Below, piece by piece: positions 14,041 through 62,841 of a stretch of DNA of 64,000 nucleotides. Every line of letters begins with the position of its first letter. Within the stretch, counting starts at the first letter, position 1. Made by a program: the position numbers and the translations under genes. Origin of the DNA: Nitrososphaerota archaeon (GTDB lineage Archaea; Thermoproteota; Nitrososphaeria; Nitrososphaerales; UBA57); NCBI GenBank assembly GCA_024860875.1, contig JACPSZ010000007.1, forward strand, positions 148,218 to 212,217, written 5' to 3'. The notes beneath the pieces were generated by a model. The model did not search any database and was not told where the DNA came from. It saw only the letters and a program-made list of their open reading frames with translations.

Positions 14041-14195
14041 GGTTCTGATAACTCTTCGGGAGATCCGAAAGTCGACTTCTGATAAACCGAAAGACCCACC
14101 AATTATCTGTCTATAGGGGCCCCTATCGTTATCTAGGGCCCTAGAGGGGGGTATAAAAAGCGAATAATTGGATAACCCGGAGAGTTATCAGAGCC
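14041..14195. repeat. MITE-like repeat element, copy 2
   Basis: The ~26-bp terminal inverted repeats are ggttctgataactcttcgggagatcc (14041-14066) and the reverse complement of 14170-14195, ggctctgataactctccgggttatcc. Internal perfect palindromes are ataggggcccctat (14113-14126) and ctagggccctag (14133-14144). A TATA-like tataaaaag lies at 14152-14160. Confidence 0.65.
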
Positions 14196-14663
14196 AAAAG
14201 AATCATCGAACTAGGACAAGTTCGTAATACGATCTGTCTGCAAAAGATGCGTAGGCATGAATCACAAACGCGCTGACATTGCGGGCAAGTGTTGCAACCG
14301 CATGTTTTGCATTGACCAAGAACTCTTTCCTTTTCAGTCGTCGCATTGCAAACTGCCTAGGATGAATCTATCTCTCCTCTGTATTCTTCAGTAATGTCCG
14401 TACAGTTCTTCAGGTGTTCTTGCATTATCTCCTTGGCGGATTTTGGGTATTGTTCGTCGAACCTCCTTCCGCAGCGTGGACAAAAGGATACGCCAGTGAA
14501 GTCAGTCAATTGCCATCATCGCCGAAATGTGATTGAATGGCTTTTAGGTTTTGGCTTAATCGGTGCCGTTTTGATTCCTGTTAATTTGTGATAAATTCAT
14601 CTAAAAAGTCGTAGAGGAAAAATCCTATACAGTCAAAGCACTCGTTGCTCTTGGAATGAGAAT

Positions 14664-14744
14664 TTACTTCTTTGCGGGTTTCTTTGGAGCTTTCTTCTTA
14701 GCCATTCCACATAGGACCTATTTTCTTAGTTTATTAAAATGATG
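14664..14744 (-). repeat. Direct repeat copy B containing the 13-codon Lys-rich micro-ORF (14664..14705, MAKKKAPKKPAKK*)
   Basis: Same orientation and architecture as 12452..12531. The ORF length, the start context gg/aATGGCTAAGAAGAAA and the upstream ttaataaactaagaaaatagg are conserved. Confidence 0.6.
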
Positions 14745-14953
14745 GGTGAAAATGCTAGCTAGTTTGATGGCTTTCCGAGTTCCATACCCCCTCGCGCGGG
14801 CTATTCGTTTGTTAGTCAGATAGGGCGTGCTGATTACTCGGCCTTTGGCCTCCTCCAGTATGATCGATTCTAAAAGTTTTCATGCTTTTCAAATTCCATG
14901 CAACATATTGTCGGAGATTCTTGAATTAGTTTCTCATCTGCTAGATCTTTAGG

Positions 14954-15208
14954 CTATTCGTTAAATTCTTTGACCATCTCGGGCTCGAACTTCGCCAGTT
15001 TTACTGCGCTTGCCTTGCTACGCAGGAAGGGCGGAACTACCAGTAACGCCTGGGACTGATCTTCCGCTTCAATTACAATCCATCCCTTATGAACCTCGTC
15101 CCTGCAACCCCAATCAAAGTTTTTCAAATATCCCATGGTAAAGACCAGTTTCACGGCTCGCCTGCAGTCTTCCACCGTGTGAGGCGACTCGATTAAGAAT
15201 CTATCCAT
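14954..15208 (-). CDS. Hypothetical small protein
   Basis: 84-aa ORF with balanced composition. No family recognised. Confidence 0.4.
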   Translation of the reverse strand: MDRFLIESPHTVEDCRRAVKLVFTMGYLKNFDWGCRDEVHKGWIVIEAEDQSQALLVVPPFLRSKASAVKLAKFEPEMVKEFNE

Positions 15209-45059: not shown

Positions 45060-45151
45060 GGGCCTGTAGCCTAGCATGGATAGGGCGTCGATCAAAGAGC
45101 GTAAGCCTTCGGAGCCGGAGGTCGTGGGTTCAAATCCCACCAGGCCCGCCA
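45060..45151 (+). tRNA. tRNA-Arg(UCG) with a 14-nt intron at non-canonical position 29/30; CCA encoded
   Basis: Hand fold: acceptor gggcctg/caggccc, D arm gcct..gggc, T arm gtggg-ttcaaat-cccac. Removing 45091..45104 (atcaaagagcgtaa) gives anticodon arm tcggc-cuucgga-gccgg. BHB geometry: central helix gcgu(45085-88)/gcgu(45099-102), with bulges cg|a and aa|g. Confidence 0.8.
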
Positions 45152-54763: not shown

Positions 54764-57169
54764 ATGATTCACAAATTTGCCGGATTTGTGGAAGCGTTTA
54801 AATATAATATCGTACGAATCAAGCCCATGACCAGAACAAAGAGGATACTGAGCCTGCTAACGGCAACAATACTTCTAGCATCATCCGTAGCAATTCTAAC
54901 AACGGCAAAGGTCAGCGCATTCGATCCTGGAGGCCCTCCAGTTGGAGGAGCAGCTCCATCAACACCTACGGGTAACTGGGAATATGTGAACTATCAGCCT
55001 ACTGGCGGTAGCTATAGTCCTCAGACGCAGATCAATCCAAGCAATGTCCAGTATCTTGAGACAAAATGGATTTATCCGTATACTGCGACCCCGATCGTTA
55101 CAACCCTGGGACCGGCGCAGGTAGGTTCTGGAGCACCCGTTATCGTAGTAGACGGGACTGCTTACGTGTTGATGAATGATAGGAGAATTCTAGCTATCGA
55201 CGCAGGTACTGGTAAGCTAATATGGAACAACACATTTGGAACAGCCTTCGATGCTGTCAAGGAAAACGCTAATTATCCATGGCTACAGCGTGTACTGGCC
55301 CATGGACACGCCATAAACTACTATCGCGACAAGGGCTGGCTGATATCCAGTTCTCTTGGTTCATGTAACCTCTATGCAGTAGATGCAAAGACGGGCAAGA
55401 CAGCATGGACTCTGAAGACGGAGCAGATATGCGGTACAAATGCCGAATTCGGCGATCCTACAAAGGGAATCATAGGAAGTCTTGGTGTCCAAGGATACAT
55501 GTCCGCACTTGGAACCCATCCTCCTCAATTCCTTGGAAACATAATGTTCTTCCCTGTAGCTGGTGCCAGTGGTGCTGGAGGTCGAAACTTTGTCACGGCA
55601 TTTGACATGACTGATCCTGCAAATCCGAAGAAACTCTACAAGGAGTTCACTTCACCTCCTGCTCAAGGAGATCCAGACTGGGCGATTAAGCAGTGCAGAG
55701 CTGCAAATGGAAATGGTTGGTACTTTGAATATCCAAAGTTCCTTGAGAGTATAAACTATCCAGCTAGAGACAGAGAACCAACATACCTAGCCACAAAGTG
55801 TACAGATGTTCCTGACGATGTAGTGAAGAATGATGGAATGGATCAAGTTCCAGGATCTCCAACCTTTGGAAAAATACATACTGCTACCAATTTTGGCTCA
55901 GCAGTTTGGGGCAATTATCCAATCGATCAGGAAACTGGTATTGTTGCATTGGGATGGGGAGATCAAGGCCCGTATACAAACCTGACACACAGATATGGTC
56001 CAGCTATACATGGCAGTGGGTTGACAGCCCATGATGTAAGGACTGGCAAAATAGTATGGTGGTTCCAATCAATTCCTCATGACCTATGGGACTACGACTG
56101 CTCGTGGGGAGGAATCATAGCAAACGTTCAGGGCAAGAAAGCCTTCGTAAAAGGATGCAAGGATGGCATTGTCCATGCATTAGATTGGAACACAGGTAAG
56201 CCATTCTGGAATTATGATCCACCAACCATACTCAGAGGAGGAAACAACATCAAGACATACTATGGCGTAGGTGCAAACAACAGGCCGACAGATCCTGAAG
56301 CATGTTGCAGAATGACAAAGGCAGATATGGGCAAGCCATGGATGACATACCCTAGCAAAGACCCGTTTGTACAGAACTGCTATACAGTATGCTTGGAGTC
56401 TGATTTCGCATATGATGGCAAGCGCATCTACGTTGCCACGTTCAACAATATGAATACTCATAGGGTAACGAACGTAATTCCTTTTGGCAATCAAGGCGGA
56501 GCTGCGCTGGGAGCCCGGGGGGCGTTCCCAGGCCAGACGTTCACTGTCGATGCCAACGTGGATGCTGTAGATATCAACACAGGCAAGAAAGTCTGGTCGT
56601 ACAAAGTCCAAGATGTTGCCTTTAGAGGCGGAGTAATGACAACAGGAGGCATAGTCATAGTTTACGCCGCTGACGGAAACCTGAAGTTCCTAGATGCTGA
56701 AACTGGAAAACTACTGCATGAGAAGTTCTTTGGTATTCCAGTAAGCGTAATGCCTACAATTGGAGCTGACAAGAACGGCAAATACAAGATCTTTGTACAC
56801 ATAGGCGGAGGAGGGGGCTTCCTTTCTGGCTCAGGTACTCTGGCAGGTAACCTAGTAGCCTTCGGTCTGCCTGATGTACTGCCACAGCCTCAAGTAATCA
56901 CAAAGGAAGTCATAAAGGAAGTACCTAAAGAAGTAGTGAAAGAAGTCATAAAGGAAGTACCCAAGGAAGTCATTAAGGAAGTACCTAAAGAAGTAGTGAA
57001 AGAAGTCATAAAGGAAGTACCCAAGGAAGTCATTAAGGAAGTACCTAAAGAAGTAGTGAAAGAAGTCACAGTAGAAACAATCAGTCCGATATCCTATGCT
57101 GCTATAGGCATTGGAGTTGTACTGGTAGTAATATCAGGAGTACTGTTCAGCAGAAAGAAGAAGGCATAG
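54764..57169 (+). CDS. PQQ-dependent dehydrogenase (quinoprotein beta-propeller) with a C-terminal KEVx-repeat stalk and TM anchor
   Basis: 801 aa. The likely true start is MTRTKRILSLL at 54827, which gives a signal peptide. The quinoprotein N-terminal pattern is W.YVNY...YSPQTQINPSNVQYLETKW. The C-terminus is (KEVI/P/V)n, then ISYAAIGIGVVLVVISGVLFSRKKKA. Confidence 0.8.
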   Translation: MIHKFAGFVEAFKYNIVRIKPMTRTKRILSLLTATILLASSVAILTTAKVSAFDPGGPPVGGAAPSTPTGNWEYVNYQPTGGSYSPQTQINPSNVQYLETKWIYPYTATPIVTTLGPAQVGSGAPVIVVDGTAYVLMNDRRILAIDAGTGKLIWNNTFGTAFDAVKENANYPWLQRVLAHGHAINYYRDKGWLISSSLGSCNLYAVDAKTGKTAWTLKTEQICGTNAEFGDPTKGIIGSLGVQGYMSALGTHPPQFLGNIMFFPVAGASGAGGRNFVTAFDMTDPANPKKLYKEFTSPPAQGDPDWAIKQCRAANGNGWYFEYPKFLESINYPARDREPTYLATKCTDVPDDVVKNDGMDQVPGSPTFGKIHTATNFGSAVWGNYPIDQETGIVALGWGDQGPYTNLTHRYGPAIHGSGLTAHDVRTGKIVWWFQSIPHDLWDYDCSWGGIIANVQGKKAFVKGCKDGIVHALDWNTGKPFWNYDPPTILRGGNNIKTYYGVGANNRPTDPEACCRMTKADMGKPWMTYPSKDPFVQNCYTVCLESDFAYDGKRIYVATFNNMNTHRVTNVIPFGNQGGAALGARGAFPGQTFTVDANVDAVDINTGKKVWSYKVQDVAFRGGVMTTGGIVIVYAADGNLKFLDAETGKLLHEKFFGIPVSVMPTIGADKNGKYKIFVHIGGGGGFLSGSGTLAGNLVAFGLPDVLPQPQVITKEVIKEVPKEVVKEVIKEVPKEVIKEVPKEVVKEVIKEVPKEVIKEVPKEVVKEVTVETISPISYAAIGIGVVLVVISGVLFSRKKKA
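56903..57068 (+). repeat. Coding tandem repeat: a 60-bp unit present twice perfectly (56941-57000, 57001-57060) plus partial copies; underlying 12-bp (KEVx) period
   Basis: The sequence lines 56941-57000 and 57001-57060 are identical. 56903-56940 matches the last 38 bp of the unit with 1 mismatch. Confidence 0.95.
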
Positions 57170-58326: not shown

Positions 58327-58525
58327 TCAGAGACTTTTGCCCATATCCCCAAGATACAAGTTGGTCCAATTCGCAATTTCTTCTTTCATCAAATCTCATA
58401 TATCCTCCGAGCACCGCAGAACCTGCGAATAGCCCCAGATGGCTACAGCGGCTAGGCATGCCACATATTCATGATAAACGGTTCAGTACTATATCTCTAT
58501 CATGTATTCTGAATGCTTTGGAAAG

Positions 58526-58534
58526 TTATTTATT
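58526..58534 (+). promoter_or_regulatory. TATA-like box upstream of tRNA-Tyr
   Basis: ttatttatt lies 28-36 nt upstream of the tRNA 5' end (58562). Confidence 0.4.
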
Positions 58535-58561
58535 GTCAATAAAACGGCCTTCTCATCTGGT

Positions 58562-58722
58562 CCCGCGGTAGCTCAGAGGATCCTAAAGTCCGAGAAACTT
58601 GGTAGAGCTTCCGATCTTCCTAAAGAAGAGGAGACGCTGTAGAAGCGGGCTCAGGCTCGTTCCACCAGCCTATCAAGCTAACAGATACCGGAGTGTCGTC
58701 GGTTCAAATCCGACCCGCGGGA
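58562..58722 (+). tRNA. tRNA-Tyr(GUA) with three introns (21 nt in the D-loop, 22 nt at 30/31, 44 nt at 37/38)
   Basis: Hand fold: acceptor cccgcgg/ccgcggg (C1-G72, the archaeal Tyr identity pair) with A73. T arm gucgg-uucaaau-ccgac. Removing 58577..58597, 58614..58635 and 58643..58686 gives a 74-nt tRNA with D arm gcuc-agcuuggua-gagc, anticodon arm uccgg-cuguaga-ccgga and variable loop guguc. Confidence 0.8.
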
Positions 58723-61143: not shown

Positions 61144-61701
61144 TTAGGTCGGTCCCTGAAACCTTTCCTTGGCAACCTTGTAGTAGATTATCTCTCCCCT
61201 TCTCTCGACTACAGCAATTATAGGCGTCTTCCCCATTCTGGTTATCTGCGCAATGGATTTTGACAATGCAGTGATAGGAACTTCTGTACCTTCGTTCAAA
61301 CCAAAGATGACAAACTTTGCTGATTTAGTACCATGCTCTCCTCTATCGTAAACTCTGAAATCAACGCCAAAGCCAAAGCCCTCCTTTGGGACATATCCTC
61401 TAGAGCGTAAATCTCTGTAAAGCAGAAACCTAGTCCATGCATTAGCATCATTCTTCAAAGATCTTTCAACAAGATAATGAAAATCAAGTTTCTTCGCATC
61501 TTCCTTGATCTCAAGTTTAGCAATGTAAGCAAGGTAGAGCATTTCATAGTCCGCAAGTAATAATGAGGAATCTTCCTTCTTGCCATATCCTTTTGACTCC
61601 AGCAGAGCTACAATATTTTCATCTTCCACAAGAGCGCCTTTTGCTGTAAGTTTAGCAGAGATTACTTGCTCTATCTCTTCAGACATAGAACTTGCATTCA
61701 A
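61144..61701 (-). CDS. endA: tRNA-splicing endonuclease (catalytic subunit)
   Basis: 185 aa. Has LYRDLRSRGYVPKEGFGFGVDFRVYDRGEHG.KSAKF and a downstream Lys (RMGKTPIIAVV). This fits the Tyr/His/Lys catalytic pattern of EndA. Confidence 0.85.
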   Translation of the reverse strand: MNASSMSEEIEQVISAKLTAKGALVEDENIVALLESKGYGKKEDSSLLLADYEMLYLAYIAKLEIKEDAKKLDFHYLVERSLKNDANAWTRFLLYRDLRSRGYVPKEGFGFGVDFRVYDRGEHGTKSAKFVIFGLNEGTEVPITALSKSIAQITRMGKTPIIAVVERRGEIIYYKVAKERFQGPT

Positions 61702-61767: not shown

Positions 61768-62841
61768 ATGCCTAACTTCTTCGAAGAGAGGACAGTAAAA
61801 TGGGAAAAAGACAGAGTTGTAATGATAGACCAGTTGAAACTTCCAACACAGTTCCGCTATCTTCAATGTACAAACCATAACCAAGTTGCAGACGCTATAA
61901 AGAAGATGATCATAAGAGGGGCTCCAGCGATAGGCGTTGCAGCCGCTATGGCGCTGGCTCTGGCAGCTAAAAACAGCATGGCCAAGACTAAAGACGATTT
62001 TATCAATGACCTTAACGCTGCTGCAGAGGTAATTAGAGCTACCAGGCCTACGGGAGTCAACCTGTTCTGGGGCGTTAAGCAGATTCTGCAGAAGGCCCAA
62101 GCCTCTACATCGAACATCGAAACTCTGAAGGAGGAGATAGTTGCAGAGGCGAACAGGCTTGCCGATGAAGACGTGGGGTTCAATCGAAAAATAGGGTTCT
62201 ACGGCGCATCACTTCTAGAAGACGGCGACACAGTGCTGACCCACTGCAAATAGCCCAAAGGCTAGCAGAGTGCGGGCGCGCTGGCAACCGTCGGATACGG
62301 GACTGCCCTCGGAGTAGTTAGAGGGGCACGAGAGCAGGGAAAATGCATCAAGGTCATTGCAACGGAGACTAGGCCACATCTTCAGGGTGCAAGATTGACA
62401 GCGTATGAGTTGAAGGAAGATGGTTTTGATGTCACGCTAATAGCGGACACCATGGTCGGCTATGTAATGAAGAAAGGGCTTGTCGATAAGGTGATTACAG
62501 GCGCTGACAGGATTACGAGGGATGGCTATGTCTTTAATAAAATAGGAACCTATCAATTAAGCATACTTGCCAAGAGGCACGAAATACCGTTCTTCTGCGC
62601 TGCTCCAATATCATCCTTTGATCCTGAAAGGACTTTTGATCAAGTTGTTATAGAGGAGAGAAATGTTAAGGAGATTACCCATATAGGCGGGAAGAGGATA
62701 GCGCCAAAGGGCATTGCCATTTTTAATCCTGCATTTGATGCTACTCCTCCAGATTTGATTTCTGCGATAATTGCAAACTTTGGGATAATCGAGTCTCCTA
62801 TAGGCGAGAACTTGAGTAAGAAACTTCGTTTGGGTAAATGA
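61768..62841 (+). CDS. mtnA: Methylthioribose-1-phosphate / ribose-1,5-bisphosphate isomerase (eIF-2B alpha/beta/delta family), interrupted by a putative 21-nt BHB intron: join(61768..62249,62271..62841)
   Basis: ORFs 61768..62253 and 62395..62841 are in the same frame. The whole 62272-62394 stretch also reads as family sequence ([47 protein letters not shown]). N-terminal motifs are DQLKLP, RGAPAIGVAAA and RPTGVNLFW. Confidence 0.85.
62250..62270 (+). other. Putative bulge-helix-bulge intron within the mtnA-like mRNA
   Basis: The insert is atagcccaaaggctagcagag. The central helix is ctgc(62244-47)/gcag(62265-68), with 3-nt bulges aaa and agt and an inner hairpin tagcc-caaa-ggcta. Excision restores [10 protein letters not shown]. 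Confidence 0.65.

Follow-up and report, generated by a model that had tools for sequence, protein, structure and literature searches.

We analysed a 64,000-nt stretch of contig JACPSZ010000007.1 from a Nitrososphaerota archaeon (hereafter the window, at its full length) and considered in particular the locus 58562-58722 on its forward strand. We read this locus, with a probability of about 0.9, as a working gene for tRNA-Tyr(GUA) from a Nitrososphaerota archaeon that branches deeply, predicted to carry three protein-spliced introns of the bulge-helix-bulge (BHB) type. The reading was based on the sequence, on the cloverleaf of the spliced product, on the BHB register of the introns, on exons that are invariant in relatives while the flanks diverge, on the presence or absence of introns in those relatives and on a nearby gene of the EndA family. 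The locus is 161 nt long and consists of four exons, of 15+16+7+36 = 74 nt, and three introns, of 21, 22 and 44 nt, which are arranged as follows, together with the box upstream.

58522-58535, + strand: putative promoter box AAAGTTATTTATTG, like a B recognition element (BRE) and TATA box, some 27-40 nt ahead of the 5′ end of the mature tRNA
58562-58576, + strand: exon 1, with the acceptor 5′ strand CCCGCGG, U8, A9, the D-stem 5′ strand GCUC, A14 and G15
58577-58597, + strand: intron 1, 21 nt, in the D-loop at 15/16, a relaxed BHB of the HBh′ type
58598-58613, + strand: exon 2, 16 nt, with the remaining D-loop, the D-stem 3′ strand, U26 and anticodon-stem positions 27-30
58614-58635, + strand: intron 2, 22 nt, in the anticodon stem at 30/31, a strict hBHBh′
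58636-58642, + strand: exon 3, 7 nt, with G31, C32, U33, the anticodon G34 U35 A36 and G37
58643-58686, + strand: intron 3, 44 nt, at the canonical position 37/38, hBH type, with an internal hairpin at 58645-58660
58687-58722, + strand: exon 4, 36 nt, with A38, the anticodon-stem 3′ strand, GUGUC, the T arm GUCGG-UUCAAAU-CCGAC, the acceptor 3′ strand and A73

With the three introns removed, the product was CCCGCGGTAGCTCAGCTTGGTAGAGCTTCCGGCTGTAGACCGGAGTGTCGTCGGTTCAAATCCGACCCGCGGGA, for which ARAGORN returned tRNA-Tyr(gta). The spliced 74-mer folds into a cloverleaf with stems of 7 (acceptor), 4 (D), 5 (anticodon) and 5 (T) bp in which all stem positions are paired, the single U.G wobble among them lying in ARAGORN's extended anticodon stem. 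Its anticodon loop has 7 nt, CUGUAGA (C32 U33 G34 U35 A36 G37 A38), with a purine at 37; the variable loop has 5 nt, GUGUC, and the T loop is UUCAAAU. Position 58562 (C) pairs with 58721 (G) as C1-G72, and 58722 is the discriminator A73; C1-G72 and A73 are identity elements of archaeal and eukaryal tyrosyl-tRNA synthetase (TyrRS). CCA is not encoded. An earlier interpretation made from the letters of the window (hereafter the sequence-only reading) had proposed this isotype and anticodon, the length of 74 nt and the two identity elements, and both the sequence and the ARAGORN result on the spliced product bear it out. It was also right that more than half of the gene is intronic (87 of the 161 nt, 54%) and that the D-loop and 30/31 introns share a core: the 8-mer TCCTAAAG is present both in intron 1 (58581-58588) and in intron 2 (58618-58625), and an 8-mer common to the two introns was found in 0.7% of composition-matched shuffles (p ~0.007). 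Its three introns, at 58577-58597, 58614-58635 and 58643-58686, were upheld by the BHB register and by the relatives.

By definition, a BHB has a central helix of 4 bp with a bulge of 3 nt on either side, and each bulge is cut behind its second base (PMC5829648), and relaxed HBh′ and hBH forms are known (PMC5829648, PMC4090602). We set the intron boundaries by the mature tRNA and then compared the resulting register with that of shuffled sequences. All three introns fit the register, one in the strict form (intron 2) and two in relaxed forms. Precisely, and with arrows for the cuts, intron 1 has the central helix CUC/GAG (3 of 4 pairs), the 5′ bulge AG↓A, the inner helix GGAU/GUCC and the 3′ site AA↓C. 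Intron 2 has the central helix CUUC/GGAG (4/4), the bulges CG↓A and AC↓G, h of 2 and h′ of 5, its inner helix UCUUC/GAAGA carrying the loop CUAAA. For intron 3 the central helix is CUGU/ACAG (4/4) and the bulges are AG↓A and AU↓A, while the outer helix, namely the anticodon stem, grows from 1 bp to 6 bp after removal of intron 2. The per-site frequencies in shuffles were 1.8e-3, 6.9e-5 and 1.6e-2, with a product of ~2e-9. The minimum free energy (MFE) fold of the whole precursor holds the hairpins of introns 1 and 2 with bulged 5′ splice sites (z = -2.83).

Excision calls and loose motif counts were considered separately. When excisions were enumerated by brute force on a different tRNA gene of the window, ARAGORN passed hundreds of arbitrary ones, and it was dropped as evidence on excision. 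A naive BHB scan gave 148 candidates in the 161 nt, loose BHB-like pairings were equally common in shuffled sequence, and a stricter scan of the whole window for mini-introns gave 15 matches, compared with 2-13 in shuffles; since the window scan stays near the shuffle level, only sites with support from their exon context are credible. As ARAGORN excision calls and loose BHB counts are uninformative alone, we used two parameter-free tests, the BHB register and the relatives. The permissiveness of ARAGORN and the frequency of loose pairings in shuffles also speak for the explanation that the cloverleaf is a chance result of picking three deletions in non-coding DNA, but the T arm, the acceptor pairing and the anticodon loop with U33 and G37 cannot come from the choice of deletions, and chance would have to account for the exon invariance and the natural intron-less D arm of the relatives, described below, as well as for a joint register of ~2e-9. 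We give this explanation a probability close to nil, as the sequences of the relatives effectively refute it.

An exact 25-mer from exon 4 was found in one species-representative genome, a groundwater Thaumarchaeota metagenome-assembled genome (MAG; its locus is L001), and in three metagenome contigs, all from the clade described next, and a metagenome scan with the 3′ exon returned only variants already recovered. To fetch the loci of the relatives we used as a handle the neighbouring gene for the replication factor C large subunit (RFC-L). The RFC-L clade is 67-98% identical to the window protein and is followed by a gap to ~45%; its gene order is conserved, with an IF-2B-family gene, an EndA-family gene, UbiA, RFC-L, an open reading frame (ORF) of 116 aa and tRNA-Tyr. 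Across 8 distinct variants of the tRNA-Tyr gene the exon columns were invariant (74/74), whereas identity to the window over the 80-nt flanks was 60-79%, except for 95-96% in the near-identical strain L012. The A/T box lies at an equal distance in all relatives, though the flank around it diverges, which is consistent with a promoter role of 58522-58535. Intron 2 is present in 8/8 variants and its sole variable column is in the loop (U/G/A). Intron 3 has 9 variable columns, located within 58643-58663 and at 58686, and its hairpin shows pair-preserving changes (C-to-U opposite G, U-to-C opposite G); in L002-L005 a G-to-A change in intron 1 converts a U.G of the inner helix to U-A. Over the 8 variants, intron substitutions fell in loops or kept the pairing.

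These comparisons bear on the explanation that the locus is a decaying, non-functional relic in which insertions were retained, with a working tRNA-Tyr elsewhere. In favour of a relic, the standard tRNA finders and Rfam miss the locus, the BHB fold of the canonical intron is not the thermodynamic optimum, and the relative L010 keeps at this position only a 13-nt 3′ remnant. Against it stand the zero substitutions in 74 exon positions over 8 variants whose flanks are 60-79% identical (one near-identical strain apart), the BHB register obeyed at all six splice sites, the conserved promoter-like box and the intron design shared with the other two tRNA genes of the window. We consider a relic highly improbable.

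The relatives also separated the 15/16 intron from a different one. Genes with the D-loop intron (type A) were those of the window and of relatives at 79-98% RFC-L identity. Type B genes (L007/8, L001, L009) have an uninterrupted D arm, GCTCAGCTTGGTAGAGC, equal to the predicted spliced product, and carry their third intron at 9/10 with a BHB; in L007 this reads CCCGCGGTA↓AGATTCCAAAAGAATCCCGTAT↓GCTCAG, with H GCGG/CCGT and h′ GATTC/GAATC. An intron in the acceptor stem (6/7) was tried for type B and rejected, as one base too many would remain ahead of the D stem and no BHB goes with that position; 9/10 fits. The 30/31 and 37/38 introns are common to the whole clade. Type B genes encode CCA and the genes with the D-loop intron do not. 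In a neighbour-joining (NJ) tree of RFC-L, type A was monophyletic and type B paraphyletic below it; on the basis of this one protein and one NJ tree, the 9/10 state is probably ancestral and the 15/16 intron derived. By sequence comparison, one intron has been replaced or relocated while the exons stayed identical, and the contrast between type A and type B is an unusually clean case for gain, loss or movement of BHB introns.

The same D arm decides on the boundaries of intron 1. Cutting the D-loop intron one base further inward on each side (58578-58596) would leave an 11-nt D-loop, AGAACUUGGUA; this register has 3 of 4 central-helix pairs, a 2-bp outer helix and a 3-bp inner helix. However, the relatives without D-loop intron have a 9-nt D-loop, AGCUUGGUA, with all other exon bases identical, and the junction predicted by the boundaries 58577-58597 is GCUCAGCUUGG. 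The natural intron-less D arm of type B therefore settles 58577-58597 over 58578-58596, and the inward cut is very unlikely. A gapped alignment to what we take to be the M. jannaschii tRNA-Tyr sequence placed its first gap at 58577-58597 and served as a lead only. The exon-junction k-mers predicted for the mature tRNA-Tyr are TTCCGGCTGTAG, CTGTAGACCGGAG and GCTCAGCTTGG, of which GCTCAGCTTGG is informative for splicing only where no type-B genome co-occurs.

Some further features of the relatives' loci were observed. In L001 (~2575-2600, - strand), L009 and the equivalents in L007/L008, a duplicated CCCGCG and ATT(ACC) stand just upstream of the true tRNA 5′ end; as CCGCGG is self-complementary, the leader copy of type B could base-pair with the genuine 5′ strand, or rival it in binding the 3′ strand of the acceptor. 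In L014 (JGI 3300025289, Ga0209002_10043737) the RFC-L is identical to P0001 (98% to the window), and the tRNA-Tyr is L001-like in its 5′ part and upstream DNA (9/10 intron type) and window-like in its 3′ part, so this locus either was joined into a chimera at the identical exons during assembly or has recombined at the tRNA gene. In L010 (5566-5585, - strand) the tRNA-Tyr is reduced to its last 13 nt (AATCCGACCCGCG) beside the 116-aa ORF, with unrelated DNA before the remnant; judged by its sequence, the remnant resembles what an attachment site leaves behind or what a rearrangement at the 3′ end of the tRNA would produce.

Within intron 3, the 22-nt block 58664-58685 (CACCAGCCTATCAAGCTAACAG) was invariant in 8/8 variants (hypergeometric ~7e-4, a hand estimate), and in MFE folds it pairs with exon 3 (GCUG/CAGC) and exon 2 (CUUGGUAG/CUAUCAAG). 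The idea that this invariant half of the intron splints exons 2 and 3 together was rejected, as its duplex energy against shuffled introns was not significant (p ~0.07). Inspection by eye for a C/D-box guide in intron 3 found no RUGAUGA or CUGA boxes.

For the processing of the gene we infer transcription, cleavage, ligation, the order of splicing and a heterotetrameric enzyme of broad specificity. A precursor of ~170 nt would be transcribed. In each intron a 4-nt stretch near the 3′ end would pair with the exon bases 3-6 nt upstream of the 5′ splice site and put each splice site behind the second base of its 3-nt bulge, the geometry of an EndA substrate. EndA would cleave at the BHB motifs and an RtcB-type ligase would join the exons, as in the archaeal protein splicing pathway (PMC5829648). 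The ends would be matured by RNase P and by 3′ processing, with addition of CCA, which the gene does not encode. As for introns 1 (15/16) and 2 (30/31), each would behave as a mini-intron whose hairpin is complete in itself and able to fold within the primary transcript. When introns are closely spaced, one must go before the neighbouring BHB can form (PMC8450103). Here the central helix of intron 2 takes the anticodon-stem bases 27-28, so that the outer helix of intron 3 is blocked until intron 2 is removed, and on these modelled pairings splicing is probably ordered, with intron 2 before intron 3.

Where relaxed motifs lie outside the anticodon arm, they need broad-specificity endonucleases of the (alpha-beta)2 or epsilon2 type (PMC4090602, PMC5829648), and Thaumarchaeota are reported to have (alpha-beta)2 EndA (PMC4090602, PMC5829648). 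By analogy with the phylum (PMC4090602), the clade would have the same type. The window has one gene of this family:

61144-61701, - strand: EndA-family gene, 2.4 kb from tRNA-Tyr and in the same conserved cluster

Its protein matched Pfam PF01974 (9.8e-23) and PF02778, scored 67.6 bits for TIGR00324 (cut-off 59.6) and matched the N-terminal repeat of two-repeat NCBIfam models. The Tyr and Lys of the catalytic triad align in it, and the best PDB match was the EndA-like, non-catalytic unit of M. kandleri 5X89. On these matches, and on the lack of an aligned catalytic His described below, it is probably the structural (beta-like) subunit of a heterotetramer.

Several observations weigh against this reading of the gene and of its evolution. 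In intron 1 the central helix forms just 3 of its 4 pairs, and the outer helix is 1 bp long. For the intermediate from which introns 1 and 2 are gone, the fold competent for a BHB has -43.7 kcal/mol against -52.6 kcal/mol for the MFE (8.9 above it), and the central-helix pairs of intron 3 have about zero ensemble probability; as its BHB fold lies above the MFE, intron 3 would need a protein, tertiary help or a refolding step. In the EndA-family protein, the catalytic His (M. jannaschii H125, M. kandleri H303) has a gap or Ser127 opposite it in the alignment, and no EndA paralogue or catalytic subunit was found within the 64-kb window. RtcB was not seen in the window either, where no search aimed at it was made. 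Finally, no outgroup tRNA-Tyr was found (L018 and L019 have none within 10 kb, by RFC-L synteny), so that the direction from 9/10 to 15/16 rests on one NJ tree of one protein.

We also considered which lineage the gene belongs to. In a survey of 217 genomes with tRNAscan-SE 2.0, 16/16 three-intron tRNAs were from Thermoproteales (PMC8450103 Table S7), a count that would favour a Thermoproteales-type crenarchaeon as the source of the window. Against this, among species-representative genomes the 3′ exon occurs only in a Thaumarchaeota MAG, the members of the RFC-L clade are named Thaumarchaeota or Nitrososphaerota archaeon in NCBI, and the next RFC-L relatives, at ~45% identity, are Nitrososphaerales, Methylarchaceae and Conexivisphaerales MAGs. 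A Thermoproteales source is extremely unlikely; by its protein and tRNA relatives the window belongs to the Nitrososphaerota (Thaumarchaeota). The sequence-only reading had remarked that three-intron tRNAs are known mainly from Thermoproteales-type Crenarchaeota and had offered the gene as a lineage marker. It was correct in that they are catalogued only from Thermoproteales (PMC8450103 Table S7), but the window is not Thermoproteales-like and such a marker would point to the wrong phylum; what holds is that the D-loop intron marks a sub-clade within the group.

The architecture is already known, while the host phylum is new and comes with a visible intron turnover. The three-intron tRNAs of Thermoproteales, such as P. 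calidifontis tRNA-Glu(UUC) and P. islandicum tRNA-Pro(UGG) (PMC4390854, PMC8450103 Table S7), likewise have one canonical and two non-canonical BHB introns, require an ordered removal of neighbouring introns and stand in intron-rich genomes. Here, in contrast, the host is a member of the Nitrososphaerota, the isotype is Tyr, and the non-canonical introns have only 21-22 nt and are hairpins with A-rich loops. Closer in lineage are the tRNA introns that Thaumarchaeota, the same phylum, carry at non-canonical positions, frequently two to a gene; tRNAscan-SE 2.0 includes a BHB covariance model built for them (PMC8450103). The survey covered 11 genomes of Thaumarchaeota, in which 122 tRNAs had one intron, 39 had two and none had three (PMC8450103 Table S7), whereas the clade of the window keeps three introns throughout, and searches of the literature available to us returned no account of a tRNA with three introns from either Thaumarchaeota or Nitrososphaerota. 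For a relative from the wider TACK group (Thaumarchaeota, Aigarchaeota, Crenarchaeota and Korarchaeota), the available part of the source describes multiple and non-canonical introns, D-arm positions included, with multiple introns in 3 of the 13 intron-containing tRNAs (Leu, Glu, Thr); neither tRNA-Tyr nor a number of introns per gene is mentioned in that part. Three introns per gene in Nitrososphaerota indicate that extreme tRNA fragmentation is not a peculiarity of Thermoproteales; it would go hand in hand with the broad-specificity endonuclease present across the TACK archaea.

The tRNA-Tyr gene is not the only interrupted gene of the window. Three tRNA genes have six introns in total, or 2.0 per gene against an average of 0.84 in Thermoproteales, with non-canonical ones in both other tRNA genes, and a protein-coding gene has a further element:

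45060-45151, + strand: tRNA-Arg(TCG), with a 14-nt intron (45091-45104) at 29/30; CCA is encoded
57449-57343, - strand: tRNA-Pro(GGG), with introns at 57416-57402 (15 nt, 30/31) and 57394-57379 (16 nt, 37/38)
62250-62270, + strand: BHB-type mini-intron of 21 nt, ATAGCCCAAAGGCTAGCAGAG, inside an IF-2B/MtnA-family gene (61768-62841, + strand)

In the outgroup L018 the tRNA-Arg is uninterrupted, and in L010 it has a different intron, of 16 nt, at the same site, whose 4-nt strand (ACGC vs GCGT) still pairs with the exon GCGT. The tRNA-Pro of L006 shows pair-preserving changes (G26-to-A opposite U; A-to-G opposite U33).

The IF-2B/MtnA-family gene adjoins the EndA-family gene and is split into two ORF calls in the window as well as in all members of the clade. 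The element 62250-62270 has a hairpin TAGCC/GGCTA, a GCAG that pairs with the exon CTGC, and the bulges AA↓A and AG↓T. Its excision gives a single ORF of 350 aa that is 57% identical from end to end to an intact outgroup orthologue (L018 7455-8513), with a seamless junction, and the predicted spliced junction is CACTGCAATGCGGGCGC. The copies of the element in the relatives have 21, 22 or 23 nt and an in-frame TAG stop, so that translation cannot read through them and removal from the RNA is required. The documented mRNA BHB introns are only those of crenarchaeal cbf5 and one in a Haloferax 5′ untranslated region (PMC7714728, PMC2738675), and this intron is probably more novel than the tRNA-Tyr gene. 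The same intron design in a protein-coding gene suggests that the EndA substrate range of the clade reaches mRNAs.

The six tRNA introns of the window share a design and are too short for a homology test. Translocatable introns of Thermoproteales, in the available parts of the sources (Fujishima et al. 2010; PMC4033280, PMC4090602), are similar intron sequences at different positions or tRNAs, which the TCCTAAAG in introns 1 and 2 recalls, and a design of A, hairpin, 4-nt exon complement and A-N is found also in the tRNA-Pro, the tRNA-Arg and the protein-coding gene of the window. Compared with the introns described in those parts, here orthologues with identical exons differ in intron position (9/10 vs 15/16), which makes a closer before-and-after pair. 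One possible, though rather doubtful, explanation is that the tRNA-Tyr introns belong to a single family of BHB mini-introns with present or recent mobility within the clade: it would account for the first three-intron tRNAs outside Thermoproteales, for the move between 9/10 and 15/16 and for a spread to the other tRNAs of the window and to 62250-62270. The design of such a family, again a tentative proposal, would be an A, a hairpin with an A-rich loop, a 4-nt exon complement and then A-N. The common design may instead come from the requirements of the enzyme. If the mobile family were true, the clade would be a natural before-and-after system for the gain of archaeal BHB introns.

As for detection, the unspliced tRNA-Tyr locus gave no tRNA with default ARAGORN, with ARAGORN -i or with Rfam (gathering and E-value modes). 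The Rfam gathering threshold misses all three tRNA genes of the window. Default ARAGORN found one of the three and without isotype, the tRNA-Arg(TCG) being reported as tRNA-??? only, and ARAGORN -i miscalled the tRNA-Pro(GGG) as a tRNA-Leu with one 29-nt intron. Genes of this kind, with several introns in a tRNA, are the hardest genes in archaeal annotation, and MAGs of this lineage will appear tRNA-deficient because the finders miss intron-split tRNA genes.

Two further features of the window were noted. A G/C-rich palindromic motif of ~45 nt (GGGGCCCCTATCGTT..TAGGGCCCTAGAGGGGGGTATAAAAA) is shared by the window (14110-14160, + strand) and L001 (2700-2750, - strand); it occurs once in the window, in an ORF-poor stretch (14116-14954), and once in L001, ~130 nt upstream of the tRNA-Tyr, the chance expectation for a 17-mer of it being 0.01. 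At 54764-57169 (+ strand) the window encodes an 801-aa beta-propeller protein like dehydrogenases dependent on pyrroloquinoline quinone (PQQ), with a tandem KEV(I/V)KEVP repeat tract at its C-terminus followed by a hydrophobic anchor.

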